Origin: Anaerolineales bacterium | GTDB lineage: Bacteria > Chloroflexota > Anaerolineae > UBA1429 | Assembly: GCA_039680625.1 (NCBI GenBank) | Contig: JBDKSN010000024.1 | Span: forward strand, 1-44,343 | DNA: 44,343 nt | Direction: 5' to 3' | In this document: positions 5,059 through 42,654 of the stretch, piece by piece | Layout of the letters: each line of letters starts with the position of its first letter | Numbering within the stretch: position 1 is the first letter of the stretch | Made by a program: the position numbers and the translations under genes | Notes under the pieces: model-generated | Database searches by the model: none | Told to the model about the DNA's origin: nothing | What the model saw: only the letters and a program-made list of their open reading frames with translations

Positions 5059-5231
5059 TCGCGGCAATGGTGCTGCGCTCGCATGGAAGGGGATGTCGAG
5101 GCTAGAATAGCCGTACATGATCATCGGTTGTGTGCCCACTGGGAACCAGGTACAGGGGTCACGCTGGGCCAGTCTGCGTTCACCTGCTGCTCAACGTGGC
5201 GTGCCCATATCACGCCCGTCTGGAGACACTC

Positions 5232-7385
5232 ATGACTCTTTCCGCTCGCTCCTCGCTCGATGCTGACCTGCGTCTGCCGCACGAGCCCGTGCTTGTGGCC
5301 GTGCTCGCGTTTACCGTGGCGCTCGTTGTAGCCGACCCACGCCTCTCCACTGGCCGTGATGTGCCGTCCCTGGCGGCCATATTGTTTACCATCGCTGGAT
5401 CGGTGTGGCTGGTGGGTCACTGGCGACCGGCAAGCGCGCCATGGCTGGCCTGGCTCCTACTGGCCGCTACGCTGATGCTGACCCGCCTCTGGTGCGGTTG
5501 GCCAGGTCTGCTTACCCTGCTGGCCATCCCCACGGCTCTGGCGGGCGCCATGATATCCCCCTCGGCGGCAATGGTGGCGGCGGTGATACAGTCGGCCCTC
5601 CTGGGCATATGGCTCTCGGGTACGCTCCCGACGGGCGAGGGTGCCATCGCGTTGATCGCCGTGTGGGCTGGGGCCGGGCTGGTCGCAGCGTTGTTTCGCC
5701 CGGTGCGCCAGTTCGCCAACTGGTCGTGGGAGCACTATGCGCTTGGCCAGCAACTGCTTGAGGAGGCGCGCGAACGTCAGTCGCAGCTCAAGGACACCCT
5801 GGATGCCCTGGCCTACGCTAACCAACAGCTCGACCTGGCCAACCAGCGGCTCGCCGCAATGCGCAAGACTGCTGAAGAGGCTGAGCGCAGCAAGGCCGCT
5901 TTTGTGGCCAACGTTAGCCACGAGTTCCGCACGCCGCTCAACATCATCATCGGGCTGGCCGAGCTGCTCATGGACGCTCCGACTGTCTATGGCGCCGAGC
6001 TGCCCCCAGCGGTAAGACGCGACATTGAGGTCATGCATCGCAACTCCGAGCACCTCGCTAGCCTGGTCAACGATGTCCTCGACCTCAGTCAGGTGGAGAC
6101 GGGGAAGATGGCCCTGCAGCGCGAGTGGGTCGACTTGCCCGCACTGGTGAGATCGGCGGTGGCGATCGTCGAGCCGCTCATCCGCGAAAAGACCCTCCCT
6201 ATCGAGCTGCAGATCCCCTCGGATGTGCCCACGGTTTACTGTGATCCACGACGAATACGCCAGGTGGTGTTGAATCTCGTCAGTAATGCCGCACGCTTTA
6301 CCGAGCAGGGCGGTATCACCGTGACTATCCAGGCCAACGACGGCGTCGTGCGCGTTAGCGTGCGCGACACTGGCCCCGGCCTTACTGAGGCCGACCGCGT
6401 TCGCGTCTTTGAGCCATTCAACCAGGGTGGAACGTTGAGCGCGATGCGCAGTCACGGCAGCGGTCTGGGACTAAGCATCAGCCGTCAGTTCGTCGAGATG
6501 CATCAGGGGACTATCACTCTCGAGAGTGCGCCTGGGGTAGGGAGCGAGTTCGCGTTCACGCTGCCTATCGAACCGCCACCGGGACCTCGCGAGCCAGCAG
6601 AACGCTGGATCAGCGATGGCTGGGAAGCGCGCCGCGCGCGCGCGCGTGTGGTGCCCCCTCAGCTACAGAATCGCCTCATGCTGGTAGACACGGTAGGTGA
6701 TCTGCAACCCGTCCTCGAGCGCTACGCTCACGATGTGACCCTCGTGCCTGCGCATGATCTGGAAGAGGCGCAGGAACGCATGGCTACCGCGGCGACGGAG
6801 GGGTTGCTCGTGAACGCCCCTACCGTCGCCGCGCTATGGCCAGCGCTGGAAGCGGCTACGCGTGCGTTTCCCGATACGCCAGTAGTGGGTTGCGTGCTCC
6901 CCGCCGCCAATGCGCACGCGCTCGCTGCGGGTGCGCGTGGTTACCTGACCAAACCGCTCAACTATGAGATGCTTGCCGCCATTCTGGCCACCTTCAGCCC
7001 GCCGCCACGCCGCATCCTGTTGGTCGACGACGATCCCGACGCGCTCGACCTCATGTCTCGTCTACTTTCCCGCTCCGACGAGAGCATCGACGTGCTCACT
7101 GCTGACACGGGGCAGAGCACCTTGGCATGCATGTTAGCAGATACGCCCGATCTTGTGTTGCTCGACATCGTGCTGCCCGAGATGGTTGGTTGGCAGGTAC
7201 TGCAGCGTGCCCAGAACGATGAACGATTGCGCCGGATACCCGTGGTGCTCGTCTCAGCCCAAGATCCGCGGGACGAACCCCTCGCCAGCCCGCTCATTGT
7301 GGCGAGCATGGCTGGTGGTTTGTCGCTCACCAAGGTGCTACGTTGTTCGCAGACGCTGGCGGGCCTGCTGATGCAGCCAGACTGA
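5232..7385 (+). CDS. Membrane-bound hybrid sensor histidine kinase with two C-terminal receiver-like domains
   Basis: Multi-TM N-terminus, coiled coil, H-box VSHEFRTPL, N-box NLVSNA, DTGPG, GSGLGL; receiver LLVDDD...LLDIVLP. GGAG RBS before the ATG at 5232. Confidence 0.88.
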   Translation: MTLSARSSLDADLRLPHEPVLVAVLAFTVALVVADPRLSTGRDVPSLAAILFTIAGSVWLVGHWRPASAPWLAWLLLAATLMLTRLWCGWPGLLTLLAIPTALAGAMISPSAAMVAAVIQSALLGIWLSGTLPTGEGAIALIAVWAGAGLVAALFRPVRQFANWSWEHYALGQQLLEEARERQSQLKDTLDALAYANQQLDLANQRLAAMRKTAEEAERSKAAFVANVSHEFRTPLNIIIGLAELLMDAPTVYGAELPPAVRRDIEVMHRNSEHLASLVNDVLDLSQVETGKMALQREWVDLPALVRSAVAIVEPLIREKTLPIELQIPSDVPTVYCDPRRIRQVVLNLVSNAARFTEQGGITVTIQANDGVVRVSVRDTGPGLTEADRVRVFEPFNQGGTLSAMRSHGSGLGLSISRQFVEMHQGTITLESAPGVGSEFAFTLPIEPPPGPREPAERWISDGWEARRARARVVPPQLQNRLMLVDTVGDLQPVLERYAHDVTLVPAHDLEEAQERMATAATEGLLVNAPTVAALWPALEAATRAFPDTPVVGCVLPAANAHALAAGARGYLTKPLNYEMLAAILATFSPPPRRILLVDDDPDALDLMSRLLSRSDESIDVLTADTGQSTLACMLADTPDLVLLDIVLPEMVGWQVLQRAQNDERLRRIPVVLVSAQDPRDEPLASPLIVASMAGGLSLTKVLRCSQTLAGLLMQPD

Positions 7386-8559
7386 TGGCGTCATCGAGCG
7401 CGGCGAGCAACTGCTGTCGCCGGACGGGTTTGTTCACGCAAGCCGTGGCTCCGAGGGCAAGGGCGAGTTCCTCTTCGTGCACGACCGAGCAGACAATGAC
7501 CGGAATGCCGCGCGAGGCAGGATGCTCGTGGAGCTGCGTGAGCAACTCCCAGCCATCGACATCGGGCAGCATCAGGTCGAGCACGATGGCGCCGGGGCGT
7601 TCGCGGGCTAGGACCTCAAACACCCTTCGCCCCTCGGCCAAATGCACCATGCGGTAGATGGTGCCCGCCAAACACAAGCCATAGTAGTGCACGAGATCGG
7701 GATTGTCATCGAGAACAAGCACCTTGACGCTGCGCGTGGAAGGCAACGCAATCTGCAGGACCGTGCCGTCGCTGGCGATGCTCGTCTCGAGTGATCCCCC
7801 CTGCGTCTCGATCAACTCGGCGGCCACCCACTCGGCCGGCGGCTCGACGACAGCCGGTCGGGCTACAGCGCGCAAGAGAACCTCACTGGCACTCTCCTCC
7901 GCTGATAGGTCCACTGTGCCGCCCTCGAGCGATCGCACGAGGTAGCTCACCACAGCGATCAGGATCTGATGGAGCACGCTCGGGTGTACGATCACCGCGG
8001 CATTCGGGTCTACAGAGGCCAGGCGTACAGTGACGCCCCTGCGCGCACTCCAGCTCTTGGTCAGTGCCAGCGCCTCCTCCAGGGCTGGAAGCACCGAGGC
8101 CACGGCGTCCTGTTTGTGCGCACCAAGGGCGGCCACCTCGGCTTCGACCTGTTCGCTGACCCCAGAAAGTCTGCCGCTTGTGTCCGCGATGGAGGCAGCA
8201 CCCTCTTGGGCGACCAACTGTTGCGCCAGCATCTCGATAGCTGCATTCTGTTCACGCCCCAGGTGTCGCACCGTAATGGCCAGCCGTTGGGCGGTCTCGT
8301 CTTGCGTCAGGTGCTCGATGTAGCGCAGGCGTAGGATGTCATAGAGTCTCCAGGCGCGCGTGTCGCCAGGCACATCTGGCCCGGGTTGCATTCCGTCGAT
8401 GGCGCGCAAGAGCATTTCGCGAGCACGCACCATATCGGCGCCCACATCCCCGAGCGCCCGAGCCAGCACGTCTGGCACCGTCGACGTCGGGTCGTAGAGG
8501 TGGCTCAGGGCCTCGCGCAGCGCATTCACTAGTGGATCTGGGTCGTTTGTGTCAGGCAT
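7327..8559 (-). CDS. Response regulator: N-terminal sigma70-region-4-like HTH, degenerate HATPase-like middle, C-terminal receiver
   Basis: LRLRYIEHLTQDETAQRLAITVRHLGREQ (HTH); receiver VLDDNP...VLDLMLPDVDGW...NKP. Overlaps the kinase 3' end convergently by 59 bp. Confidence 0.82.
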   Translation of the reverse strand: MPDTNDPDPLVNALREALSHLYDPTSTVPDVLARALGDVGADMVRAREMLLRAIDGMQPGPDVPGDTRAWRLYDILRLRYIEHLTQDETAQRLAITVRHLGREQNAAIEMLAQQLVAQEGAASIADTSGRLSGVSEQVEAEVAALGAHKQDAVASVLPALEEALALTKSWSARRGVTVRLASVDPNAAVIVHPSVLHQILIAVVSYLVRSLEGGTVDLSAEESASEVLLRAVARPAVVEPPAEWVAAELIETQGGSLETSIASDGTVLQIALPSTRSVKVLVLDDNPDLVHYYGLCLAGTIYRMVHLAEGRRVFEVLARERPGAIVLDLMLPDVDGWELLTQLHEHPASRGIPVIVCSVVHEEELALALGATACVNKPVRRQQLLAALDDAISLAASAGPPASANNVAPW

Positions 8560-8603
8560 GTCAGGCGTGTGTCAGTCTGCAGTCAGCCGAGCGTCATGGT
8601 CAG
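8551..8603. promoter_or_regulatory. Phased GTCA(G) direct-repeat array, probable operator
   Basis: GTCA at 8551, 8560, 8571, 8582, 8593 and 8599; four copies are exactly 11 bp apart. The array straddles the regulator start codon, upstream of the divergent ABC operon. Confidence 0.6.
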
Positions 8604-8833
8604 CACTGCTTCGTTCGTTCATACTGTCCATAGCAAAGGCGACGTCGGGCGGCCACTAGCAATTGCCGCCCACCAGCGGCCTCACTGCCGCATGGCATCA
8701 TGGTAGTGGAGCGGTGTGTCGCCGTCAAGGGAGAGGTGCCCTGCCTGGGCACCTGGAAGGAGGGGCTCATCAACAGGACGAGTGTTCTCGGTCGCTGCTC
8801 ATCTGGGTGTCTATGGAGAGAAGGAGCTGAGAA

Positions 8834-10231
8834 ATGTCCATGCATCTGAACCGTCGGCAATTGTTGCGTTCGATGGCTGTGGGTACAGCAGGGGTGGTTC
8901 TTGCCGCCTGCCAGCCCAAGGTCGTCGAGAAGGTCGTCAAAGAGACGGTGATCGTCGAAGGCACGCCCAAGGTCATCGAGAAGACCGTGGTCGTCGAGAA
9001 AGAAGGGCCGCCTCCGACGGCGGCCAAGTATGAGAAAGTGATCGTCTGGGGGTGGTGGGAGCCGCGCATGGCGTTCTATCAAGATGCGGCCAACGCTTTG
9101 ATGGATCAGAACCCCGATATCGAGGTCGAGGTCATCAGTCTGCCCGGCGATCAACTGTGGTCCAAGGTTCTTCCCGCCACTGCCGCGGGCACCGGCCCCA
9201 CACTGCTCAAGCAAAAGCCGACCTACTACTTTTCATTCCTCGACAATGGGCTGCTTGAGCCCTATCCGGAAGAGATCTTTCCTATCGACTGGTGGAAGAC
9301 CAATTTCCCCGACACGTGGGACATCTATGGCAAAGAGGGCCGGCAGTACGTCTACCTCGACGGCTCGATGGCCAACTTGCTGATGTACAACCGCACGATG
9401 TTCGAGGCCGTCGGTCTCGACCCGCAAACACCCCCAGTCAGCTGGGATGAGTTGATCAACATGGGCAAGCAGCTCACCAAGACGGATTCCGCCGGCACGA
9501 TCCTGGAGGAGGGCTTGATCCTCGGCGAGTACCCGTGGATCAACGCGGTCTATCAGCTCGGGGGCAGCCTGGTGAACATCGCCGACGATGGCACGCGTAC
9601 GTCAGCCATGCTATCCGAGCCGGCCGTCAAGGCCTTTACCTGGTTGTGCGAGCTCTATACCAAACACAAGATCTCTTCCCGTGAGTTCCTCACCTATGAG
9701 GAGGCCATCGGCACCTCCAAGGCTGCTATGGGCCTGATGACGAGCTGGATCGTGGGCACATTCGACACGACCTATCCGGACGTCGCCGCTGTGCTGGGCT
9801 GGGCGCCCCCGCCCACGCCGACCGGCAAGCCTGAGCCTGTGTGGGGCTACAAGACCAATGTGCTCGCCCTGACGATGTTCCAGAACCGGCCGGTCATGGA
9901 GAAGGAAGCTGGCTTTGTGTATCTGGATTGGCTGCTCAATAACTCGGACAAGTCTCTGGCAGATATCGCCGAGATCACGGGCTGTCTACCGGGGAAGCTG
10001 TCCGTGCGTAGCGATCCTCGCTTCACGGCCAAAGAGGCGTTGCGCGTAGCCATCGACACGTTGCCTCTGGAGAAGAGCTCGGTCATGGAGAGCGAGAACT
10101 TGAACGCAGTACGCGACAACGCCATCAACCGCGTTGTGCTCGAGGGACAGAGTATCGAGGAATCTCTCGCGATCGCTGATCAGGAATGGAACCAGTGGCT
10201 CGCTGAGGGCGATGCGTCGCACATGGCCTAG
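8834..10231 (+). CDS. Carbohydrate ABC transporter substrate-binding lipoprotein (CUT1)
   Basis: Twin-arginine NRRQLL plus lipobox LAAC; VEKVVKETV linker; YNRTMFEAVGLDP..PP.SWDE motif; AAGGAG RBS. Confidence 0.9.
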   Translation: MSMHLNRRQLLRSMAVGTAGVVLAACQPKVVEKVVKETVIVEGTPKVIEKTVVVEKEGPPPTAAKYEKVIVWGWWEPRMAFYQDAANALMDQNPDIEVEVISLPGDQLWSKVLPATAAGTGPTLLKQKPTYYFSFLDNGLLEPYPEEIFPIDWWKTNFPDTWDIYGKEGRQYVYLDGSMANLLMYNRTMFEAVGLDPQTPPVSWDELINMGKQLTKTDSAGTILEEGLILGEYPWINAVYQLGGSLVNIADDGTRTSAMLSEPAVKAFTWLCELYTKHKISSREFLTYEEAIGTSKAAMGLMTSWIVGTFDTTYPDVAAVLGWAPPPTPTGKPEPVWGYKTNVLALTMFQNRPVMEKEAGFVYLDWLLNNSDKSLADIAEITGCLPGKLSVRSDPRFTAKEALRVAIDTLPLEKSSVMESENLNAVRDNAINRVVLEGQSIEESLAIADQEWNQWLAEGDASHMA

Positions 10232-10242
10232 ACTGGTCTTGT

Positions 10243-10273
10243 TTGCCAGAGGCCCCATCGGGGCCTCTGGCAA
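10243..10273 (+). terminator. Perfect 14 bp stem-loop after the SBP gene (mRNA-stabilising or partial terminator)
   Basis: TTGCCAGAGGCCCC-ATC-GGGGCCTCTGGCAA. Confidence 0.75.
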
Positions 10274-10310
10274 GGGTCTTTGGAGACATCCCTGAAAGGG
10301 GGCGCCGTAT

Positions 10311-11240
10311 ATGGCTCTCTCAGCTATCCGTCGGGCAAACCAGACCGCAGGCCGAGCGCGTCGGGCACGCCTCGGCGGCCCACAGAGACGCTTTGTCTGG
10401 TCCGTGCTAGGACCTTGCATCCTCTTCTACCTGATATTCCGCTTCTACCCGTTTGCCAATGCGCTGATCATCAGCTTTCGCGAGTACAACATCGTCTCGC
10501 CCGTCAAGCCATTCGTTGGCTTGGACAACTATGAGAAGATCTTTAACAACACGGTGTTCCGTGCCGCCATTGTCAACAGTTTTTACTATGGCGTGGTGAC
10601 GACGATCGTCGGCCTGATCGTGTCGCTGGCCGTGGCCTTGCTCATCAACGGCCTGCCTCGCTTCAAAGACGCCTTCCGCGCGATCTTTTTCCTGCCGCAG
10701 ATCACCAATGCCATCGCCGTAGCCATGGTTTGGGGATGGCTCTACCAGCCAGTCTATGGTTTTTTCAACCAAGTGCTCAAAGTGTTCGGGCTGCCGGTGA
10801 TCGGCTGGCTTACCTCACCTCAATACGCTATGCCCAGCCTCATGGTCATGGGCATCTGGGGCGGGGTAGGCATGAGTGTGGTAGTGCTGATGGCCGGGTT
10901 GGCGGGCATCCCCAGCGTCTATCGTGAGGCCTGCATGATCGACGGTGGCAACCGCTGGCACATCTTTCGCTATGTCACCTTGCCCCTCTTGCAGCCCACC
11001 CTGGTCTTTATCCTCGTCACCGGTTTTATGGGTGCGTTTGAGCTCTTTTCCTCTGTGTTCGTGCTCACGCAGGGCGGCCCGCTGAACCGGACTTATGTGC
11101 TGGCCTACTACATCTACCGACGTGCGTTCGTTGACCTCAAGATGGGCGAGGCGTCAGCGGCAGGCTTTGTGATGTTCGTCTTGGTACTCGCGATCACGAT
11201 CATCCAGTTGCGCTTTATGCGGACGCGCTGGGAATACTGA
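10311..11240 (+). CDS. Carbohydrate ABC transporter permease (MalF/UgpA-like)
   Basis: FVGLDNY; EAA-loop YREACMIDGG; TQGGP; multiple TM segments. Confidence 0.92.
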   Translation: MALSAIRRANQTAGRARRARLGGPQRRFVWSVLGPCILFYLIFRFYPFANALIISFREYNIVSPVKPFVGLDNYEKIFNNTVFRAAIVNSFYYGVVTTIVGLIVSLAVALLINGLPRFKDAFRAIFFLPQITNAIAVAMVWGWLYQPVYGFFNQVLKVFGLPVIGWLTSPQYAMPSLMVMGIWGGVGMSVVVLMAGLAGIPSVYREACMIDGGNRWHIFRYVTLPLLQPTLVFILVTGFMGAFELFSSVFVLTQGGPLNRTYVLAYYIYRRAFVDLKMGEASAAGFVMFVLVLAITIIQLRFMRTRWEY

Positions 11241-11279
11241 GCCGCAGCCAGAGGGCGGTAAGTGCAGAAAGGAGCCCAT

Positions 11280-12113
11280 ATGGGTAGACAAACGACGGAT
11301 CGGTTGATGCACGCCATCGCCTATGTGTTGCTGGCGCTTGGCTCGATCATGATGCTACTGCCATTCTACTGGATGGTCATCACCTCGATCAAGATCCCGT
11401 CGGAGGTAGTCACATTCCCGCCGACCTGGGTGCCCTCGGTGGTGACCTTTGACCACTATGTGCGCGTATTCCGAGATCTGGCGGTCGGCATTCTGTATCG
11501 CAACAGCGCCGTCGTTGCCATCACCAAGACGTTGCTCATGGTATTCACCAGCGCCCTGACGGGCTATGTGTTTGCCAAGTTCAGCTTCAAGGGGCGCGAC
11601 CTCATCTTCTCGGCCATCATCGCGACGATGATCATCCCGTTGCAGGTGTATATGATCCCCCTCTATCTGATGATGGTGGATTTTCAGTGGCACAACACCT
11701 ACACCGGGTTGATCATGCCCTACGTCTTTAGCGCGTACGCCATGTTCCTGGTGCGCCAGTTCATGCACAACATCCCGAGCGAATTGATCGAGGCGGCGCG
11801 CATAGACGGTGCGGGCGAGCTGCGCATCTTTCTGCGTATCGTGATGCCTCTCAGCCAGGCAGTGCTGGCCACGCTGGTCATCTTTTACTTTATGTGGAAC
11901 TGGAATGACTTCTTGTGGCCGTTGGTAGTGCTGAATAGCCCGAACAAGTATACCCTGCCGATCGGGCTGACCGTGTTCAACAGCGAGTATGGCACTGACT
12001 ATGGCGCCACCATGGCCGCCGCGTCCATCGCCGTGATCCCGGTGATGATCGTGTTCTTTGTGTTTCAGCGTCATATCGTCGAGGGCGTAGCGCTCACCGG
12101 CCTCAAGGGCTAG
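11280..12113 (+). CDS. Carbohydrate ABC transporter permease (MalG/UgpE-like)
   Basis: ELIEAARIDGA, WNDFLWP, GLKG end; AAAGGAG RBS before the ATG at 11280. Confidence 0.93.
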   Translation: MGRQTTDRLMHAIAYVLLALGSIMMLLPFYWMVITSIKIPSEVVTFPPTWVPSVVTFDHYVRVFRDLAVGILYRNSAVVAITKTLLMVFTSALTGYVFAKFSFKGRDLIFSAIIATMIIPLQVYMIPLYLMMVDFQWHNTYTGLIMPYVFSAYAMFLVRQFMHNIPSELIEAARIDGAGELRIFLRIVMPLSQAVLATLVIFYFMWNWNDFLWPLVVLNSPNKYTLPIGLTVFNSEYGTDYGATMAAASIAVIPVMIVFFVFQRHIVEGVALTGLKG

Positions 12114-12164: not shown

Positions 12165-13064
12165 ATGTCCAAACGGTATCTGACTCATGAGGAGTTTTTC
12201 GACGACACCTTGCCGCCATACGCCACCGGAGAGCGGCGCCTAGCCTGTCTGGGCCTGCAGGTGCCCTTTCCTCTGACTTACCTTGTCACGATGGACCGGC
12301 ACACCCGTGACGTTCGCGTGACCACGGCGACGCTAGGCCCTTTTAGCTGGGTGCCCTATACGATGTCGGTCAACATTCCGCTTGGCGACGAGCCGACTGT
12401 CGCCAATCTGCGCGCCGAAGGCGAATGTGTGATGGCCTTACCCACACGCACACAGGCTCGCCAGGCCTGGATCGCCTCACATATCTATCCCGCGGGCATC
12501 AACGCCGCTGAGGTGGCTCGTCTCACGATGGCGCCGTCTCACCGCGTACAGGTGCCGAGCATTGTCGAGTGCCCCGTGAACTTTGAGTGCATCATCGAGT
12601 ACGTCCGCATGTACCACGGCTATGGTATTGCCGCCCTCCGCGTGGTGGGCGCGACCCTGGATGATGAGGTGCTGCCGTTGTCACGCGAGGCGCTCAGCCA
12701 GCTCTATCCCATCAACTATGTTGGTGAGCGCGTCTATGGCGACGGTACGGTCAGCGCGCGCCTGGCGATGATGGGTACGATCACACCGTGTCCAACCTTT
12801 CCCGTTGGGCACAAACAAGGTTGGGATACGCGAGTGCCCACCTGGGTGGCCGATCTCGTGGCTGAGGAGTTCATCTCGAGGCGAGAGGGAGACCTGGTGA
12901 TGGCCTGGCTCGCGGACTATGAGAGGATGCGGCTCGACCCGCATCTCGCTGAGCGTCAGGACTTGCAAGACAAGCTCACGACTTTTGCCGAGCTGGCGGC
13001 CTGGGGCGAATGGGAAGCCCTGCACGCCTACCTGGGCATCGAACCGCCGGAGGCGCGGTCATGA
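12165..13064 (+). CDS. Flavin reductase-like (FMN split-barrel) protein with C-terminal extension, paralog 1 (subtype B)
   Basis: SWVP, GIN...ARLTMAPS.RV.VPSIVECPVNFEC motif typical of flavoredoxin/flavin reductase-like proteins; GAGGAG RBS. Confidence 0.75.
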   Translation: MSKRYLTHEEFFDDTLPPYATGERRLACLGLQVPFPLTYLVTMDRHTRDVRVTTATLGPFSWVPYTMSVNIPLGDEPTVANLRAEGECVMALPTRTQARQAWIASHIYPAGINAAEVARLTMAPSHRVQVPSIVECPVNFECIIEYVRMYHGYGIAALRVVGATLDDEVLPLSREALSQLYPINYVGERVYGDGTVSARLAMMGTITPCPTFPVGHKQGWDTRVPTWVADLVAEEFISRREGDLVMAWLADYERMRLDPHLAERQDLQDKLTTFAELAAWGEWEALHAYLGIEPPEARS

Positions 13065-13975
13065 AAGTGTTCTACACGCACGACGAAATCGAACAACGCT
13101 ATCCCTACCTCGTCCCCGGCATCGAGGAACCCTCGCACCGCCATTTCGCTTTTCAGCCGGCGCGGCCCGCGAATCTCCTGGTGAGCCTGGATCGGGTGAC
13201 GGGCGAGATCAACGTCTCAGCGGGCACCATCGGGCCACTAAGCTGGGACCCTTACACGATCGCGATCCACTGTAGCAAGTCCAGCCTGGACAGCAGCGCC
13301 AATATCCAGCAGGTGGGCGCTGAATGTGTCGTGGCGCTACCGGGAGACGACATCATCCCCCAGACCTGGATGACAGCGCTCAACCTCCCGCGCGGCGTCA
13401 ACGAAGCCAAGGTGGCGCGGTTGACGCTCTATCCCTCGCGCCTGGTCAAGGCGCCCAGCGTCGCCGAGTGTCCGGTCAATCTGGAGTGTGTGGTAGAGTA
13501 CTACCGTGAGCAGCACTCGCACTTTATCGCTTTCCTGCGCATCCTCGGCGCCAGTATCGACGAGTCGCTACTGACAGAGGATCCTGACGCCGCCATGCAC
13601 CGCTTCCCCACCTGGGAAGTCGACGACGTCGACAACACGTGGCATGGCTCGGTGGAGCGGCTCGGCGTGTTGGGCGAGTTTCTGGCGGTACCGCGCGTGC
13701 GCCCGGCGCGTGGCTGGGGCGGACGTCTAGAGGATTGGCTGCTCGACCTGCGTCAGACCGGTGAGCTGAGCGAGCAAGAACTGCAGACAGCTAACGCCTG
13801 GCTGAAGCGATGGAACAGTCTGGCTGATGTACGGCCCGCCGCTTGGAGCGACACCGGCGTCGAGTCCGACAAGGCCCGAGAGCGCGAGCAGATGCATCAA
13901 CGCATCACCCGGCTATGCACGCTGATGGCCTGGGACGAGTTGGATGAGCTGCATCGCCTGCTCCAGGCTGGCTGA
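13061..13975 (+). CDS. Flavin reductase-like protein with C-terminal extension, paralog 2 (subtype A)
   Basis: Start MKVFYTHDE via ATGA overlap with paralog 1; GEINVS, DSSANI, GVNE, PSRLVKAPSVAECPVNLEC, H in HSHF. Confidence 0.8.
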   Translation: MKVFYTHDEIEQRYPYLVPGIEEPSHRHFAFQPARPANLLVSLDRVTGEINVSAGTIGPLSWDPYTIAIHCSKSSLDSSANIQQVGAECVVALPGDDIIPQTWMTALNLPRGVNEAKVARLTLYPSRLVKAPSVAECPVNLECVVEYYREQHSHFIAFLRILGASIDESLLTEDPDAAMHRFPTWEVDDVDNTWHGSVERLGVLGEFLAVPRVRPARGWGGRLEDWLLDLRQTGELSEQELQTANAWLKRWNSLADVRPAAWSDTGVESDKAREREQMHQRITRLCTLMAWDELDELHRLLQAG

Positions 13976-14011
13976 TCGAGTCTCAAGAAGCCAATGTCCA
14001 AGGAGACAGAC

Positions 14012-17000
14012 ATGACCGAGCTTGAGACCCGCGCGGTGTGCCTGCCGGGCGGCGAGCGGCCCGTGCTCTGGGCGGGCGATGTGGTGGTGGCGGGCGCATC
14101 CTTTGCTGGCCTGTCGGCTGCGCTAGCGCTGGCTGGTTCGGGACGTCGGGTGGCCATCATCGAGCCACGCACCTACCCAGGGCGTGAGCTAACGGCGACC
14201 CAGCGGCCGTGGCTTCTTGAAGATGTAGGATCAGAAACGCCATTGATCGCCAGTTGCCTGGCGTTGCCCGGCAATGTGCGGCATGGAGGCGAGGTGGCTC
14301 TGCACCCTGATCAGCTCAAGATCTACGTCGAGGACGTACTCGCCGCGGCGGGTGTGGAGTTGTTCTATGCCACCCATGCCGTCGGCCTCTTGACGGGTGA
14401 CGGTGCTGTTCAGGGGCTGGTGGTAGCGAACAAGTCAGGCCGACAGGTGCTGCTGGCCTCTGTGCTGGTGGATGCGACGGAGACAGCCCTGCTGGCTCGT
14501 TTGGCGGGGGCAAAAGTTGCGCCTGACATGACCCCTACCGTCTACCGGCGCACGCTCGAGTTCGGCGGCGTCGGCGAAGACGTTAGCGAGACGCTCGACG
14601 TACCCGCCACGCTGGGCCTGGTGGGGAACCGCGTTGAATGCCATCGAGGGGTGCAAGGGGCAGGGCACTGCTATGTAGACTATGCTGTAGCCTGGCCGCG
14701 GCGGGCCACAACCATGCCTGAGGCTGCCGCTCTCAAGGCGAGCCTGGAGGCCACTGGGCTGGCGTTGACGGTCTATCTGCGCGACCATGTGCTGGCGTTC
14801 GCGCCGCCTGCCATCATTGGCTTTTCGTCGTACGAACCTGCCGGGCCACTCTGTGGGCCGCTGTCCGCCGGTGCCTCGCTGCCCGAAGGCCTGTGGCTGC
14901 TCAATGAGTCTTCGGCCGATGGCACGGACTATGCTGACGCGCGTGCCGCGGCCCGTCGGGGCGAGGAGCGAGGGCGCCAAATCGCTGAGTGTATTCGGCC
15001 GCCTCGCCGCTCGTCGGCGAGTGCGACAGAGCCTTTGACCGGCGGGCAACCTAGTTTGACTGTGCGCGAGCAGAGTGTGCCGCAGCGTGGTCGGGCGTAT
15101 CCGTTCGCTGTGGTACCTGAGGAATCCCTGCCGGTGGTGCTGTCGCGCGATATCCTCGTCGTGGGCGGTGGCTCCAGCGGCGCGATGGCCGCCATTGTCG
15201 CTGTCGAGGAGGGCGCCTCGGCAGCCGTCGTGGACATGAACCCGGGCCTCGGGGGCACAGGCACTTATGGCGGCATCAACACTTACTGGTTTGCGCGCCG
15301 CTTTGGCTTTGTCGACCGCTTGATGGGCTGGCTAGATGAGATCCATGACCGCCTATACATTCGCCGGCCTCAGGGCGTAATGGCCCACTGGAACGTCGAG
15401 GCGCGCGTGCAGGCGCTGCGCGAACAGGCCGAGCGTGCGGGCGTCAAGACCTTGCTCAATGCGCTCGCCTTTGGCGCCGTGCTTGAAGGGCAGCATGTGC
15501 GTGGTGTCGCGGCCGCGACTCCCTATGGCCCAGTGGTCGCTCTGGGCCGCGTGGTGCTCGATGCTACCGGCGACGCAGATGTGGCGGCCTGGGCGGGGGC
15601 CGAGGCGACGTATGGCTCTGCTCGGGAGCATGTAGTGATGTGGGGCTACATGCCACAGCTCGCCGCGCCAGACCAACCCCGCAACGTCAAGACCAGCATG
15701 GTCGATACGACCAACATCGCCGACTACAACCGTATGATCCGCGCCGAGCGACGCCGCGCTGGATCTGGCGACTATGATCATGGGGTGTATCTCGCCCCAC
15801 GCGAAAGTCGGCACATCCAGGCCGAGGTAGTGATGACGCTCACCGATCAGCTCACCCGGCGCTGTTGGCCCGATGTGGCCTATATCGCCTTTAGCAATTA
15901 CGACATGAAGGGCGAGGCCACGTCGGATTGGGTGCGTATGGGCCTCCAGCCGCCTAACCTGACGATGGAGATCTCTTATCGGTCGTTGGTGCCCAAGGGG
16001 GTGGAGGATATCTTGGTGGTGGGCAAGGCCTTTGCCGCCACGCACGACGGCGTAGCCGCCCCACGGATGCAGCCCGACATGGAGAACCTGGGCGGTGTAG
16101 GCGCGGTGGCGGCGGCTCTGGCCTTGCGCGAGCGAACCTCGGTGCGTGCGCTGAATGTACGTCACCTGCAAGAGCGTCTTGTCGGCCTGCGAGTGTTGCC
16201 CGCAGACGTTCTGACGCGCCAGCTGGCACCACTCAGGTTCACACGCGCTGAGCTCGAGCGCCAAGTTGCCGAGATCGATGGCAAGCGTCCGTTGGCCGAC
16301 TATTCGGCCCAAGAGATCGGGGAGCCGTATCCGGGGCGGGTGCCCGAGGTGGACGTGATGTGCGCTGGCCCAGAAGCCATCCCCGTGCTGGAGGCTGCTC
16401 TGGCCACAGCGGCCGGCCGTCGCAAGACGCGCCTGGCGCAAATGCTGTGCGTGTTGGGATCGCGAGCGGGCGTCGAGCACCTTGTCGGGGTGCTACATGA
16501 AGCGTTTAGCGGGTCTGCGCTACCCGATCGGCCATACAAGGTCATGCATCAAGGCCCACCGCCCGATCAGGGCGCCGACACTGAGGAGGCGCATCTACTC
16601 ACCACGCTGGCTATGGCCGGCGATGACCGCATTCTGCCGTTGTGGCAGCGGGTGGTCGATCTGTTGGACGGCACGACTCGTGAAGACATCTTTGATCCGG
16701 CGAAGGACCGGCTCGGCTATGCCGCGGCTGTGGCCTACGGCGCAGAACGCCTGGGCGATCCGCGCGCCGTGCCCATTCTGCGGCAGCTGCACAGCTATCC
16801 GCTGTTCGGGGGCCTGCGCTCGACCTCAGGCCAGCAGGCGGACTGGTTCCTCGAGCGGCTCGCGTATGGCGAGCTGCTCACGGGGCGGGCATTGGCTCGA
16901 TGTGGCAGCCCCGAGGGATTCATCATCCTGATCAACTATCTCGAAGATGTGCGCGCCTCACTGGCCGAGCACGCCCACGAGGAGCTGATCAGCATCACGG

Positions 17001-17167
17001 GCGAGGACTATGGCAAAGATGTCTCGGCGTGGGCCGCCTGGCTGGAGCAGACAGCCGATCAACTAGAGCCGCGGCCCTATCATGCTACACCCGAGCCGGT
17101 GGCGGCTTGGCGCGAGTGCATTCTCGTCGAGGCCGATGCCCCTCGGCCATCGGCGCCACAAGCATAG
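14012..17167 (+). CDS. Large FAD-dependent oxidoreductase: two tandem FAD_oxidored (PF12831-like) modules plus C-terminal HEAT-like helical region
   Basis: Module 1: DVVVAGASFAG...NKSGRQ...VDATE. Module 2: DILVVGGGSSG...GGTGTYGG...DATGDAD...PRESRHI...ISYRSLVPKGVEDILVVG. C-terminus ALARCG...LISITGEDYGKD..AW..W. AAGGAG RBS before 14012. Confidence 0.82.
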   Translation: MTELETRAVCLPGGERPVLWAGDVVVAGASFAGLSAALALAGSGRRVAIIEPRTYPGRELTATQRPWLLEDVGSETPLIASCLALPGNVRHGGEVALHPDQLKIYVEDVLAAAGVELFYATHAVGLLTGDGAVQGLVVANKSGRQVLLASVLVDATETALLARLAGAKVAPDMTPTVYRRTLEFGGVGEDVSETLDVPATLGLVGNRVECHRGVQGAGHCYVDYAVAWPRRATTMPEAAALKASLEATGLALTVYLRDHVLAFAPPAIIGFSSYEPAGPLCGPLSAGASLPEGLWLLNESSADGTDYADARAAARRGEERGRQIAECIRPPRRSSASATEPLTGGQPSLTVREQSVPQRGRAYPFAVVPEESLPVVLSRDILVVGGGSSGAMAAIVAVEEGASAAVVDMNPGLGGTGTYGGINTYWFARRFGFVDRLMGWLDEIHDRLYIRRPQGVMAHWNVEARVQALREQAERAGVKTLLNALAFGAVLEGQHVRGVAAATPYGPVVALGRVVLDATGDADVAAWAGAEATYGSAREHVVMWGYMPQLAAPDQPRNVKTSMVDTTNIADYNRMIRAERRRAGSGDYDHGVYLAPRESRHIQAEVVMTLTDQLTRRCWPDVAYIAFSNYDMKGEATSDWVRMGLQPPNLTMEISYRSLVPKGVEDILVVGKAFAATHDGVAAPRMQPDMENLGGVGAVAAALALRERTSVRALNVRHLQERLVGLRVLPADVLTRQLAPLRFTRAELERQVAEIDGKRPLADYSAQEIGEPYPGRVPEVDVMCAGPEAIPVLEAALATAAGRRKTRLAQMLCVLGSRAGVEHLVGVLHEAFSGSALPDRPYKVMHQGPPPDQGADTEEAHLLTTLAMAGDDRILPLWQRVVDLLDGTTREDIFDPAKDRLGYAAAVAYGAERLGDPRAVPILRQLHSYPLFGGLRSTSGQQADWFLERLAYGELLTGRALARCGSPEGFIILINYLEDVRASLAEHAHEELISITGEDYGKDVSAWAAWLEQTADQLEPRPYHATPEPVAAWRECILVEADAPRPSAPQA

Positions 17168-17186
17168 CTAGAAGTAGGAGAAAGCC

Positions 17187-18092
17187 ATGGCCAAGTTGTT
17201 CGTGACCAAAGAGTTCATGCGCTCGTCGCCGACCGTCCAAGGGGTGCTGGATCACCGCCAAGTGCACTTTCACTTTCGGCCGGTGCGACCAGCCGATATC
17301 GTCGTCTCGCTAGATCCCGTCTCGGGCGAGGTCAACCTGGCTGCTGGCACCTATGGGGTGACCGCCTGGAATCCGCTGACTATCGGCCTACACATTCACA
17401 AGAGCAGCTATGACAGTCAGCGCAATGTCGCCGCCGCGGCGCCGGGCACAGGCTTGGTGGTCGCCCTCCCCAGTCGCGACCTGGTGCGCGAGACCTGGTT
17501 CACCTCGATGCCTATTCCACGGGGTATCAACGAGGGCGACCTGGGCCATCTGACCATGGTGCCCTCGCAGCTGATCGAGCCGCCCTCTATCGCCGAGTGC
17601 CCCGTCAACCTAGAGACGGTGATCGAGCGCATCGACCTCTATGGCATCCACCACATCGTCCTCTGCCGCGTGCTCGGTGCCCGCATCCAGGACGAAGTCG
17701 TGAGTGCTGACCGGCTATCGACCTTGCGGTGCTACCCGACGCACGAGTGCGATGACATCGACAATGCATGGCGCGGTGCTGTGGAGCGCCTAAGCCTTGT
17801 CGGCGAACTGCTGCCATGCCCGCAGTTCCCCTGTGGCCCACGGCGCGGACTGCAAGGCACTCTTGACGAGTGGATCGCAGAGCTGGGCGCTGCGGGGCTG
17901 ATCACCGCCCAGGGCCAGCATCTTTTCGAGGCCTGGACGGCCCGCTGGCGCCAAGTGGCTCAAGAGGCAGCCGCCCCCGAGCGGGCCGCGCTGCGCACCA
18001 GGCTGTCGCGCGCTATCGAACTGGCCGCCTGGGAAGAGTTCTCGCAATTGAACGCCTATCTGGCGGCCGAAGGAGAGGAGGAGCACCCATGA
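17187..18092 (+). CDS. Flavin reductase-like protein with C-terminal extension, paralog 3 (subtype A)
   Basis: GEVNLA, DSQRNV, GINE, PSQLIEPPSIAECPVNLE, GIHH; closest to paralog 2. Confidence 0.8.
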   Translation: MAKLFVTKEFMRSSPTVQGVLDHRQVHFHFRPVRPADIVVSLDPVSGEVNLAAGTYGVTAWNPLTIGLHIHKSSYDSQRNVAAAAPGTGLVVALPSRDLVRETWFTSMPIPRGINEGDLGHLTMVPSQLIEPPSIAECPVNLETVIERIDLYGIHHIVLCRVLGARIQDEVVSADRLSTLRCYPTHECDDIDNAWRGAVERLSLVGELLPCPQFPCGPRRGLQGTLDEWIAELGAAGLITAQGQHLFEAWTARWRQVAQEAAAPERAALRTRLSRAIELAAWEEFSQLNAYLAAEGEEEHP

Positions 18093-18961
18093 GCGCGAGT
18101 TTCTACACACACGAGGAGCTTCAGACCGGTGTGCCCGGGCTGGCCGATCCACAGCAGCTGCTCTACTCGGCCAGTGGCCCGATGCCAGCGCTCATCTTGG
18201 TGTGGCGGCATCCGGTGACTGACGAGCTATTGTTGCGCTACACCACGATGACGCCCCTCAGTTGGGAGCCATTCTCGATGATGGTCACCGTGCCGCAGAG
18301 CGATACCCAGACGGCCGACACCCTGCGCGTTGGCGCCATCTGTGTCATGGCCTGGGGCGGACGCCAAACGGCGCGCGCGCATTACCTCGCTGCCCTCGAT
18401 CTGCCCGTTGGCCTTGACCAGCTAGCCATCGCCCGTCTGCACCCGGTCGCGTCGCCTTATGGGCCAGTACCGCATCTGCGCGAGTGCCCGCTCAACGTGG
18501 AATGTCATGTGGATCGCATTGTCAACCACAATGGTTGGCGAAACTATTGGCTGATCGTCGACTGTTTTAGCCTCGATGAGGAGATCCTGCCTTTGCCGCG
18601 CGAGGTGGTGTTGCAGCGCTACCATCTCTACCAAGCCGACCGTGTGGGCAACGGTCAAGGTGGCCAGCAATTGCGACTTGGCATGGCCAGCGAGCTGAGC
18701 GAATGCCCGCGATTCCCCGTAGGCCCCAAGTCTGGCTGGTACTCGATATTCCCTCGCTGGGTAGACGAGCTTCGCGATGAGAGTTACCTCTCGCTCACGG
18801 AGCACGACAAACTCATCGCCTGGCACGACCGATATCTTGCCCTGTTCGACCAGGTGGCCAACCCAGAGCGCGTGACACTGCACGAGCAACTTACCTCCGC
18901 TTGCGAGGCCATCTGTTGGCAGGAATGGCCACACCTACATGCCCTACTAGCCGAACCCTAG
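18089..18961 (+). CDS. Flavin reductase-like protein with C-terminal extension, paralog 4 (subtype B)
   Basis: Start MSASFYTHEE via ATGA overlap with paralog 3 (GAGGAG RBS); SWEP, PHLRECPLNVEC; closest to paralog 1. Confidence 0.72.
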   Translation: MSASFYTHEELQTGVPGLADPQQLLYSASGPMPALILVWRHPVTDELLLRYTTMTPLSWEPFSMMVTVPQSDTQTADTLRVGAICVMAWGGRQTARAHYLAALDLPVGLDQLAIARLHPVASPYGPVPHLRECPLNVECHVDRIVNHNGWRNYWLIVDCFSLDEEILPLPREVVLQRYHLYQADRVGNGQGGQQLRLGMASELSECPRFPVGPKSGWYSIFPRWVDELRDESYLSLTEHDKLIAWHDRYLALFDQVANPERVTLHEQLTSACEAICWQEWPHLHALLAEP

Positions 18962-19082: not shown

Positions 19083-19110
19083 CCGCCAACCACCGTGAGT
19101 GAGGAGTAGT

Positions 19111-20466
19111 TTGTCGGCCCCAAGCGCCCGCGATCTCGTCACCGGCAGCGTCTATCGCCACATCGTGCGTCTGGCCACGCCCACGGCCATCGAGCAGGCA
19201 CTGCTGGCGATCACCGGCCTCATCCATGCCTTTTGGATGGATCGGGTAGGCCCCTATGCGCTCTCGGCGGTCGTCATGGGCACGGCGATGCGCATCGTCC
19301 TGATCAGCCCGATGATGGGCCTCTCTGCGGGTGGCATGGCGGTGGTGGCGCACGAGATCGGTGCGCGCAACCGACTGGCTGCCGACCGCGCTTGTACGCA
19401 GACGCTGACTCTAGTCATGCTGATGGCCCTGCCCCTGATGGCCATCGGCCAGGCCTTTGCGCCGGTGTTCCTACGGTGGATGGGCGCCACAGGCGAGATC
19501 CACGCCAACGCCACGCAGTACGTGCGCATCATCCTCTGGGGCTTGTTCTTTATGGAGTGCCTGCCCACGATGAACGGGGTGATCCGCGGTGCGGGCCGGC
19601 CCGAGTTCACTTTGCGCATCACCATCGTGAGCCGCGTGGTGTTCTTTGCCCTCGAACCGATCCTGGCCTTTGGGCTGGGGCCGGTGCCCGTGCTCGGAGT
19701 GCGCGGTGTGGCGCTAGCCGAGGTGGTGGCCAACGCCGTGGGTGTCGGCGCGCAGCTGGTGGTGTTGCTCTCCAAAGACGGCTGCCTGACCTTGCGGCTC
19801 AGTGACCTCGCGCCCGACTGGGCGATGATGCGCCGGGTCATCCGCATTGCGCTGCCCAACTCGGCCCAGCGGCTCTCGCCGAATCTGGCCAATGCGCTGT
19901 TCCTGCGTCTCGTCGCGAGCCTGGGCCTCACCGTTCTGGCGGCCTATAGTGTGTTCACCCAGATCCAGACACTGGTGCAGGGGATCGTCGCCGGCCCGCA
20001 GTCGGCGGCCGCGACGATGGTCGGGCAAAACCTGGGCGGCGGGCAGCCAGAGCGTGCAGTACGCTCGGCGTGGTTCGGTGCAGCGCTCGGCGCGGCGCTG
20101 CCGCTATGCCTATATGCGATCATCAACCTGGCGAGCGGCCTGCTCTTGCCGATGCTCAACCGCGACCCGCAGGTGGTCGTTGCGGCGCGGCAGGTGCTGA
20201 CCTTTGCGCTGGCCTTTGGGTCGCTCAACGGACTATGGCTCGTGCTGGGCAATGCCCTGGCCGGCGCGGGAGATGCCGGCGTGCCCTCGCTCATCAGCAT
20301 TGTCAGCCTCTGGGCCGTGCAGCTCCCCGTCTGTTCCCTATTGGCTCACCGAGCGGGCCTGGGCCCAACGGGCGTATGGCTGGGCATGATCCTCGGCAAC
20401 CTGGTGTGTGCCGCGGGCATGGCCTACCGCCTGCGCTCTGGGCGGTGGCAAGAGATTCGCGTCTAG
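19111..20466 (+). CDS. MATE family efflux transporter
   Basis: DLVTGSVYRHIVRLATP start, IRGAGRP, ATMVGQNLG, GVWLG, RSGRWQ end; ~12 TM. TTG start after GAGGAG (alternative GTG at 19099). Confidence 0.88.
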   Translation: MSAPSARDLVTGSVYRHIVRLATPTAIEQALLAITGLIHAFWMDRVGPYALSAVVMGTAMRIVLISPMMGLSAGGMAVVAHEIGARNRLAADRACTQTLTLVMLMALPLMAIGQAFAPVFLRWMGATGEIHANATQYVRIILWGLFFMECLPTMNGVIRGAGRPEFTLRITIVSRVVFFALEPILAFGLGPVPVLGVRGVALAEVVANAVGVGAQLVVLLSKDGCLTLRLSDLAPDWAMMRRVIRIALPNSAQRLSPNLANALFLRLVASLGLTVLAAYSVFTQIQTLVQGIVAGPQSAAATMVGQNLGGGQPERAVRSAWFGAALGAALPLCLYAIINLASGLLLPMLNRDPQVVVAARQVLTFALAFGSLNGLWLVLGNALAGAGDAGVPSLISIVSLWAVQLPVCSLLAHRAGLGPTGVWLGMILGNLVCAAGMAYRLRSGRWQEIRV

Positions 20467-41847: not shown

Positions 41848-42627
41848 TCAGCGCAACAAGCCGTCCAGGTAACCCGCGGCATAGAGCGCCTCGCTCTGCA
41901 GATCCGGGCCCCAGTTGCACTCGATAGAGACTGCGCCCTGATAGTCGATGGCCAACAGCTCATCGAATAGCTCGCTGAGCGGATAATGTCCATACCCTGG
42001 ATAGCGGCGCTCTTCGCCACTGAGGTGCACATGCACGAGCCAGTCGCCGACCTCGCGCAGCACCTCGAAAGGCTCGTGCTCCTCAACCATGTGATAGATG
42101 TCGGCCAACACGCGCACGCCCGGCCGGCCCACATCTCGCGCGAGGCGCAATGCCTCGCCGACGCGGTTGATGATGTTCGACTCGGGGCGCCGCAGCCCCT
42201 CGACGGCGAACACGACGCCGCGCTGCTCACCCTCGTTGGCGGCTAGGGTCAGCACGCGCACCAGCTGATCCCAAGCCTGCGTGCGCGCAAAGCCCTCGGG
42301 CACGTGCCGTGCACCACCACTGCCAAAGACCAGCACCTTGGCGCCCAGATCGGCGGCGCGGTTCACCACGCGATGCAGATAGAGCGCGACCACATCCCAA
42401 TCCACCTGGTCGCCGGTGAGCCTGAGCTGCGCCGGAAACAGCACGTTGAAGGCGCGCACGGGGAGCGGGCTAGCCGCCAATGCGGCCCGATTCGGCTCAT
42501 AGGCCGCGTCATCTTCCAGCCCGCAGAGCATCCGCGCCCCAGGAGGCTCAATAAAGTCATAGAAGGGCTGCAACCGTGCCACATTGTCCGGCGTGGCACT
42601 CACACCCAGCTTGAATGGTCTTGGCAT
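41848..42627 (-). CDS. Sugar phosphate isomerase/epimerase family (xylose isomerase-like TIM barrel)
   Basis: VFGSGGAR, VE.L...E, DIYHM, HVHL, SIEC metal-binding motifs. Confidence 0.88.
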   Translation of the reverse strand: MPRPFKLGVSATPDNVARLQPFYDFIEPPGARMLCGLEDDAAYEPNRAALAASPLPVRAFNVLFPAQLRLTGDQVDWDVVALYLHRVVNRAADLGAKVLVFGSGGARHVPEGFARTQAWDQLVRVLTLAANEGEQRGVVFAVEGLRRPESNIINRVGEALRLARDVGRPGVRVLADIYHMVEEHEPFEVLREVGDWLVHVHLSGEERRYPGYGHYPLSELFDELLAIDYQGAVSIECNWGPDLQSEALYAAGYLDGLLR

Positions 42628-42654
42628 TGTCCGTGGCTCCTTTCGCTGCCCAAC

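Follow-up and report, generated by a model that had tools for sequence, protein, structure and literature searches.

Paired flavoredoxin-like split-barrel proteins flank a two-module flavoprotein of an uncharacterised family in a sugar-linked Anaerolineales operon

We analysed a stretch of 44,343 nt from an Anaerolineales bacterium (Chloroflexota; assembly GCA_039680625.1, contig JBDKSN010000024.1), hereafter the window, in which the gene for a large flavoprotein is framed by two pairs of split-barrel genes. An earlier, sequence-only reading of the window had described five co-directional genes, and their open reading frames (ORFs) are indeed all found on the forward strand, downstream of an ATP-binding cassette (ABC) importer. 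The first pair comprises paralog 1 (B1; 299 aa, 12165..13064), a diverged B-type split barrel with a C-terminal helical arm, and paralog 2 (A2; 304 aa, 13061..13975), an A-type subunit. The central gene (13994..17167) encodes a two-module flavoprotein of 1057 aa, below simply the big protein, and the second pair consists of paralog 3 (A3; 301 aa, 17187..18092), again an A-type subunit, and paralog 4 (B4; 290 aa, 18089..18961), a fast-evolving B-type subunit. Both ATGA start/stop overlaps lie where that reading had placed them (B1/A2 at 13061-13064, A3/B4 at 18089-18092). The big gene is spaced 18 nt from A2 and 19 nt from A3, the remaining gaps in the operon measure 18-51 nt, and a promoter and terminator scan gave no convincing signal within the operon.

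The four smaller proteins can be aligned with 36 invariant columns, the other three being 32-34% identical to B1. When A2 was searched against the 2.8-Mb host genome, it matched A3 (42% identity, E 2e-67), B1 (35%, 3e-42) and B4 (32%, 2e-31); since the next best match is short and weak (148 residues, E 1.8e-7), the four genes are real paralogs rather than chance resemblances. All motifs quoted for them in the sequence-only reading are present, save that A2 has D at the last position of the shared [FY]xTxE (the T and E columns are invariant in the alignment). At the 27-bit cut-off of Pfam PF01613, B1 (38.7 bits) and A2 (43.5 bits) score above and A3 (26.1 bits) and B4 (23.8 bits) below, and NCBIfam holds no family for any of the four. 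A profile of A-type sequences and singletons, that is, relatives encoded without a partner gene, matched among solved proteins the FMN-binding (flavin mononucleotide-binding) protein MTH152 (1eje) at E 8.4e-18, and also PH0856, component B of nitrilotriacetate (NTA) monooxygenase, NbaA and flavoredoxins; a B profile matched PH0856 (2r6v, E 7.6e-15) and 1eje (E 5.7e-11). A2, the sole paralog folded singly, gave an AlphaFold (AF2) model with a predicted local distance difference test score (pLDDT) of 79.6, in which a split barrel (residues 38-200) is followed by four helices (223-303) and the stretches 15-32, 184-188 and 198-208 are disordered. Foldseek returned 1eje as the best match (E 3.3e-12), and all matches were flavin reductases or flavoredoxins aligned over the barrel only, which agrees with the fold originally assigned to these proteins. 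For the C-terminal tail of ~100 residues we found no Pfam or NCBIfam family at E<=1 and no Foldseek match covering it. The four paralogs are thus flavoredoxin-like split barrels of the FMN-binding kind with a C-terminal four-helix arm, their own binding of FMN being predicted from sequence.

How do they differ from what has been described? With flavoredoxins and archaeal FMN-binding proteins of PF01613 (MTH152, 1eje; PH0856, 2r6v; Desulfovibrio flavoredoxin, 2d5m; a Methanosarcina protein, 3bnk; NbaA, 4z85) they share the split beta-barrel fold and, over residues ~28-186, the motifs RP, N..A(P/G)(S/T), (S/T)..N and an ECxxN/EC-type strand. Unlike these proteins of ~190 aa, the paralogs reach ~300 aa through a 100-residue extension made up of an exchanged strand region and the four-helix arm, occur as conserved A/B gene pairs, are predicted to form heterodimers and lie in sugar-utilisation loci. 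Long-form reductases (C1 of HPAH, 5zc2/5zyr; SMa0793, 3rh7) are likewise ~290-310 aa long, with an N-terminal split barrel and a second region; Foldseek aligns them to A2 over the barrel only, or at a root-mean-square deviation (rmsd) of 16-17 A over the full length, and they are not known to occur as A/B pairs. A search for longer, fused relatives of A2 (533-2000 aa) yielded none at E<=1e-3, a search that is itself weak evidence. An Fe-S or Zn site formed by the conserved cysteines (C89, C137, C143, C~209) was considered and rejected, because the fourth cysteine is absent from A2 and from one singleton clade, and fused forms lack the first.

Relationships among the paralogs were examined in a tree of 62 rows (58 of them different; locus L025 excluded), computed in the quick mode of IQ-TREE with support from the Shimodaira-Hasegawa-like approximate likelihood ratio test (SH-aLRT) only. 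The sequence-only reading had grouped the proteins by subtype (1 with 4, 2 with 3) rather than by position, and the tree follows it, with a reservation about B4 that we take up below. One clade (SH-aLRT 96) unites B1 and B4 with the second genes of all four foreign pairs, another (SH-aLRT 93) unites A2 and A3 with the first genes of these pairs, which come from metagenome-assembled genomes (MAGs) of Chloroflexia, Ktedonobacterales, Limnochordia and Hebobacteria, and the singleton genes form separate clades outside both. In the approximately unbiased (AU) test, a clade of B1 and A2 is rejected (delta lnL 391, p 0.0005).

The two subtypes have also parted in what they retain. If the 65 columns conserved throughout the three singleton clades are taken as ancestral, 47 persist in the A clade and 31 in the B clade (A2 53, A3 52, B4 35). 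Twenty-five ancestral columns survive in A only, including RPA, N51, G55, H70, T102/W103, R111/E115 and the E186...E206 block, and nine in B only, e.g. W62, L82, R175 and W294. Columns common to A-type proteins, singletons and 1eje (RP, N51, G55/T56, S..N, ETW, PRG..E), most of which B has lost, include the presumed FMN contacts.

Pairing of the two subtypes is strict wherever it could be read. Metagenome contigs scanned with a B-specific pattern gave 24 loci, of which 20 were informative in that the relevant flank was present (L054 and L068 were uninformative, L067 held a singleton and L076 a short match only). An A gene adjoins B in all 20, in the order B-A in three (L053, L055, L074) and A-B in 17, and we saw no B-type gene unpaired. 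A and B are at most 30 nt apart in each of the 22 pairs, 12 of which offer a possible start codon that shares 4 nt or 1 nt with the stop of the upstream gene. In L020 and L070/L071, a single ORF with two tandem split-barrel domains stands beside an A-B pair. These fusions (L020:~7925-9766, L070:7063-8994, and also L071) consist of two highly diverged barrels, the N-terminal half tailless and the C-terminal half with a helical tail; they sit between the permease genes and the A-B pair, so that each locus holds four barrel domains, as does the window, in another arrangement. An insertion of ~3.4 kb at L058:6005-9403 (also L059) splits the A gene of one A-B pair; in it lie a fragment of an IS1-like transposase and two ORFs, one with a P63C and one with an NYN domain. 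The two gene halves overlap by ~3 residues, as a target-site duplication would give.

Modelled together, A2 and B1 gave interface scores (interaction prediction score from aligned errors, ipSAE) of 0.93, 0.92 and 0.93, whereas the best of three controls scored 0.00; the same mark is attained by 116 of 157 solved complexes and by two of 215 mismatched pairs. At least 95% of contacts are common to the runs, and the partner pLDDT is 91-92. The ~450 predicted contacts involve, among others, a strand region (residues 192-226) in both chains, each helical arm packs onto residues 117-118 of the other subunit, and the A2 segments 184-188 and 198-208, disordered in the monomer model, fall in the modelled interface. 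Together with the tandem fusions, this speaks for the heterodimer that had been proposed for paralogs 1 and 2. Judging from the model, the fusions and the complementary loss of columns, we think it probable that A/B pairs form obligate heterodimers.

The big protein is a clear member of the uncharacterised family of PF12831 (FAD_oxidored) tandem flavoproteins with a helical-repeat tail. PF12831 matches it in three stretches at 223.9 bits (cut-off 27), dinucleotide-binding starts lie at residues 29 and 386, and the AF2 model (pLDDT 92.3, predicted template modelling score 0.93) divides it into module 1 (~23-338), module 2 (~381-716) and the helical-repeat tail (~720-1045). PF00890 also scores 33.8 bits, with its best stretch covering only the Rossmann start at residues 29-59. 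Module 1 resembles the geranylgeranyl reductase-like 3oz2 (Z 20.7, rmsd 3.5, 279 aligned residues), FixC of the bifurcating Fix/EtfABCX complex (7koe_G, Z 19.1) and, as a likeness of fold only, halogenases (Z 15.8-17.9, among them CndH at 17.9 and Bmp2 at 17.6) and group-A monooxygenases. Hence the earlier statement that the system contains no monooxygenase holds by Pfam, although module 1 has the fold of group-A monooxygenases, halogenases and geranylgeranyl reductases. Module 2 resembles urocanate reductase (UrdA; 6t85, Z 18.1, rmsd 3.3, 222 aligned) and also Thi4, flavocytochrome c3 (1qo8, Z 17.4) and 3-ketosteroid dehydrogenase (KstD; 4c3x, Z 16.2). What the modules share with these enzymes is the fold: identities are only 14-21%, we found no family-level sequence membership, and the geranylgeranyl reductase models are missed by far (TIGR02032, 23.8 against 158.8 bits; NF041080, 35.8 against 580). 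The module 2 dinucleotide motif, GGG(T/S)SG, recurs in nearly all of 45 aligned homologs; that of module 1 is mostly GGSxAG, and an acidic residue after strand 2 is conserved (VxxxEPRT). Inspection revealed no signal peptide, and since the gene also follows an ABC importer, the big protein is predicted from its sequence to be cytoplasmic.

The family is large: 4814 representative clusters match at E<=1e-3, and 687 still do so at E<=1e-30, many of them ~1000 aa long. Neighbours of the big protein in the atlas, which come from Verrucomicrobiota, Lentisphaerota, Bacteroidota and Bacillota, all bear the label 'FAD-dependent oxidoreductase' (FAD, flavin adenine dinucleotide). Within it, the window's protein lacks a signal peptide, follows an ABC importer and is flanked by split-barrel pairs. 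As the sequence-only reading had supposed of the pathway, the literature searched describes neither this system nor heterodimeric split-barrel flavoproteins, nor does it give a reaction for PF12831 tandem proteins. In passages of published accounts of xanthan loci, an uncharacterised FAD-dependent oxidoreductase is listed beside an ABC transporter, to which we assign no family here (PMC12772297; bioRxiv 10.64898/2026.04.20.719765).

Upstream of the pairs, the operon opens with the solute-binding lipoprotein of a CUT1-like sugar ABC importer (8834..10231, + strand; SBP_bac_8 3.4e-21, SBP_bac_1 4.2e-20), whose N-terminus, MSMHLNRRQLL...LAAC, is a twin-arginine/lipobox signal and whose closest solved relatives are sugar-binding proteins. 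Two permease genes follow on the same strand, at 10311..11240 (BPD_transp_1 6.8e-13) and 11262..12113 (BPD_transp_1 8.3e-27); the upstream position of the first is conserved in L016, L053-L055 and L098. Sugar genes recur beside relatives of the paralogs elsewhere. Glycoside hydrolase family 4 (GH4) genes of AglA-like type (E 9e-118 to 1obb) lie near them in L016, L017, L020, L057 and L070/71, GH35-like beta-galactosidases (E 4e-64 to 8faa) are their direct neighbours in L021, L028, L056, L057 and L070, and further neighbours include sugar ABC systems, LacI and IclR regulators, GH2, GH9, GH12 and GH123. This agrees with the catabolic setting, around an ABC-imported substrate, that had been suggested for the window, and we hold the link of the system to sugars with good confidence. 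The host genome (2.8 Mb, 99.7% complete) contains ten GH4 genes and no match to the haem-copper oxidase gene COX1, and for these reasons the organism is probably an anaerobic sugar fermenter. Elsewhere in the window (31277-32728 and 41848-43677) we noted a GH51-like alpha-L-arabinofuranosidase, a xylose-isomerase-like TIM barrel protein and a Gfo/Idh/MocA oxidoreductase.

Divergent to the operon, a 410-aa response regulator (7327..8559, - strand) is its probable regulator, and a regulator 47% identical to it occupies the same divergent position in locus L055. Its domain order is unusual, with a weak sigma-70 region-4-like helix-turn-helix near the N-terminus (PF04545, E 2.9e-4) and the receiver domain at the C-terminus (PF00072, E 3.6e-17); a hybrid histidine kinase gene (5130-7385) overlaps its 3' end. 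At the other end, 137 nt downstream of B4, lies a MatE-family efflux transporter (19099..20466, + strand; PF01554 1.1e-46). No MatE gene was found beside the paralogs in any related locus examined, and we doubt that it is part of the unit. The G+C content falls to 0.572 at positions 10001-12000, over the permease genes, compared with 0.61-0.68 elsewhere in the window, and is 0.57 for the transporter part of the operon compared with 0.64-0.68 for the flanks; combined with the absence of the operon from 40 relatives of the host, this is consistent with acquisition by gene transfer.

How widespread are the components? A word-indexed search gave 108 clusters for A2, almost all of 283-312 aa and named only by automatic 'flavin reductase' labels, and 15 clusters for B1. 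None of the 40 host relatives has a full-length member of the paralog family (best E 2e-11, over residues 36-207). A collection of species representatives held full-length relatives at 16 loci (L016-L031), all in MAGs, labelled Chloroflexia, Ktedonobacterales, Spirochaetota, Hebobacteria/Armatimonadota, Bacillota, Oscillospiraceae and Limnochordia; four of the loci carry an A-B pair (L016, L018, L020, L030), 11 a singleton, and L025 is cut by the contig end. Of the 25 A-B loci, eight include the big gene within the DNA fetched (window, L016, L020, L030, L053, L055, L056, L075), and it also lies near singletons in L017 and L067. Every one of the five genomes known to have A-B pairs holds it (those of the window, L016, L020 and L030, and G041, the genome of the L018 pair, where it lies elsewhere in the genome). 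Parts of the layout recur in L053 and L055, with permease-B1-A2-big gene before the contig ends, and in L075, a close relative, with permease-big gene-A3-B4; in the latter, the second permease, there directly ahead of the big gene, is 93% identical to that of the window, the big protein 72%, A3 79% and B4 75%.

Some loci show other company. In the L098 operon of genome G139, genes for a binding protein, two permeases and the big protein follow one another, and a 534-aa ORF (L098:11408-13012) is coupled to the last of these by overlapping its stop; this ORF has no Pfam family, and its genome has no split-barrel paralogs. The ORF shares no ancestry with such paralogs (hhalign probability 0.2) and could be an alternative partner of the big flavoprotein. 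In L017, a singleton paralog follows a 988-aa PF12831 protein and is itself followed directly by a 1443-aa ORF (L017:10843-15174) without a Pfam match at E<=1. In two Armatimonadota-type loci (L022:2244-2855, L029:11328-12227), a gene for an NADPH-dependent FMN reductase (PF03358) lies within ~1 kb of a singleton paralog, and this reductase could be the electron donor of the singleton form.

What might the physiological role of such a system be? We propose, tentatively, that obligate A/B heterodimers serve as FMN electron relays for a flavoenzyme that processes glycosides in the cytoplasm. A carbohydrate or glycoside would be imported via the lipoprotein-anchored ABC system and then be processed in the cytoplasm by a multi-flavin redox system, with the two-module flavoprotein as the enzyme that converts it. 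The two FMN-binding split barrels encoded by each translationally coupled A/B pair would assemble into an obligate heterodimer, each subunit wrapping its C-terminal helical arm round the other. Such heterodimers may have evolved from homodimeric singletons, with A keeping the ancestral cofactor and active-site motifs and B becoming a diverged partner, so that the dimer would probably have one canonical flavin site. Through them, the FAD of the big enzyme would exchange electrons with the pyridine-nucleotide pool or with another carrier, and in the probably anaerobic host this relay would take the place of O2 or a respiratory chain. Enzymes of the UrdA, KstD and geranylgeranyl reductase type act by reduction or desaturation on C-C bonds adjacent to a carbonyl or carboxylate, or by reduction on the C=C bonds of isoprenoids, and a separate carrier supplies the electrons. 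Structural relatives of both modules are fed by a separate module or an external electron carrier, the nearest working analogy being urocanate and fumarate reductases, in which an attached FMN or haem module feeds the FAD. One could go further and imagine that the A/B dimers dock with their arms on the helical-repeat tail of the big protein, forming a cytoplasmic complex of two FAD and one or two FMN for an undescribed activation or cleavage of glycosides in anaerobes, perhaps with split or merged electron flow. The thought of split or merged flow arises because module 1 is FixC-like and two split-barrel pairs per big enzyme occur in separate lineages (two pairs in the window; a fused pair plus an A-B pair in L020 and L070), yet we consider this extension unlikely.

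Several observations weigh against the proposal. The sequence-only reading suggested a search for conserved synteny with the double PF12831 gene, and such synteny is not general: 17 of the 25 A-B loci have no big gene in the fetched DNA, and in L018, L063, L065, L066, L069 and L070/71 it is absent despite 10 kb on each side. Among five paralog-bearing genomes tested, four, all of them singleton genomes, have no big-gene homolog at E<=1e-20, G041 being the one that does. Conversely, 400 other genomes sampled from the host phylum included four with a big-gene ortholog (E<=1e-60). At E<=1e-10 the paralog family is absent from three of the four, including one whose genome is complete; the remaining one, L100, repeats the layout of L020, and the two are counted once. 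Paralogs and big flavoprotein are thus separable in both directions, and their coupling is optional rather than that of an obligatory five-gene system. The mirror-like B-A-[oxidoreductase]-A-B architecture, present in the window as described, is complete there only; L075 lacks the first pair. Unpaired homologs, which the same reading would have counted against itself, are common (11 of the 16 loci in the species-representative collection), if confined to clades of their own and never of B type. The high A2+B1 score may stem from likeness to solved split-barrel homodimers, and it cannot tell a heterodimer from a homodimer. B4 is not secure in the B clade, in that a clade of A3 and B4 stands in the AU test (delta lnL 19.4, p 0.16). 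Given this result, the long branch of B4 (1.99) and the presence in it of two of the four strictly B-derived columns (A3 has none of the four), B4 may have arisen independently from an A3-like gene. Finally, the idea of one active and one degenerate subunit fits the many columns that B has lost and A has kept, but the B profile matches FMN-binding proteins as well as noted above and nine ancestral columns persist in B only, so the B side, too, may still bind FMN.

Because A/B proteins and big enzyme so often occur apart, we grade the electron-relay role lower than the heterodimers, as a possibility that we favour with reserve. The same separability speaks for the most serious competitor, namely that A/B heterodimers and singleton homodimers are autonomous FMN-dependent reductases of a small sugar-derived or co-imported metabolite, in the manner of NbaA-type reductases of nitro, quinone or enone compounds. 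Solved relatives do include the substrate-reducing NbaA (4z85) and PH0856 with small aromatic ligands (3zoc, 3zod), and in the five loci with directly adjoining GH35-like genes it is these, not the big gene, that are the commonest immediate neighbours. We nevertheless find this doubtful, as the pairs hug the big gene on both sides in the window, in an operon without another enzyme, all five genomes known to have A-B pairs hold the big gene, and no candidate substrate can be named. That there are no heterodimers at all, the four proteins being redundant or differently regulated homodimeric flavin reductases that are adjacent through tandem duplication only, would suit the ambiguity of the complex model, the survival of A3 and B4 as recent sisters in the AU test and the fact that all known solved members of the split-barrel family are homodimers. 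It fits poorly with the presence of A beside every B in the 20 informative loci, the spread of the A and B clades over several phyla each, the complementary loss of ancestral columns, the tandem fusions, the conserved overlap of start and stop codons and the rejection of B1 and A2 as sisters, and we regard it as very unlikely.

Could the big protein instead be an oxygenase fed with free flavin? In two-component systems, a PF01613 reductase (HpaC, SgcE6, BorF, CtcQ) serves an oxygenase or halogenase, and here likewise a PF01613 gene adjoins that of a large flavoenzyme, the classic layout of such systems. The A/B proteins would then be NAD(P)H:flavin reductases that supply reduced flavin to module 1 for O2-dependent, oxygenase- or halogenase-type chemistry on a sugar, and module 1 does have the same PHBH/halogenase-type fold, aligning with CndH, Bmp2 and group-A monooxygenases, and a motif that mostly reads G-G-S-x-A-G instead of GxGxxG. 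In contrast to these systems, however, Pfam scans of the operon genes gave no known oxygenase-component family, and the host, lacking COX1, is probably anaerobic, as are most members of the Spirochaetota, Limnochordia and Oscillospiraceae in whose MAGs relatives occur. The paralogs also stand nearer to FMN-binding proteins and flavoredoxins (1eje, E 8e-18), which hold their flavin, than to HpaC-type free-flavin reductases, which give weaker Foldseek matches only, and the conserved acidic residue after strand 2 of module 1 fits a bound FAD. Both the host and the likeness of the paralogs to flavoredoxins make such chemistry the less likely course, and indeed a highly improbable one. We lend equally little credence to a non-catalytic function of the A/B proteins, be it in inserting flavin into the big flavoprotein, in its assembly or in its regulation by ligand sensing. 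The loss from B of many columns common to A, singletons and 1eje would be in keeping with it, and C1 of HPAH, a long-form reductase and weak Foldseek match (5zc2), has a regulatory C-terminal domain. Yet the Pfam and NCBIfam scans detected no DNA-binding or known assembly-factor domain, the motifs of A are conserved as strongly as one expects of a working cofactor site, and orthologs of the big gene exist without A/B proteins.

In sum, the novelty here lies in flavoredoxin-like proteins that are long, come in pairs and accompany a flavoenzyme whose family is uncharacterised, and the operon points to an unstudied redox step in the breakdown of sugars. The family of the big protein recurs in sugar-utilisation loci of many phyla, with no reaction described for it in the literature searched. 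A putatively cytoplasmic member that comes with its own apparent flavin partners, and with no other enzyme in the operon, represents a compact system in which to look for the reaction of the family. If true, the reading as a multi-flavin complex would give a first function to the large family of PF12831 tandem proteins. Likewise, heterodimers that arose from homodimeric split barrels, a fold so far known as homodimers only, through complementary loss of residues and with independent fusions, would be a clear case of subunit specialisation.

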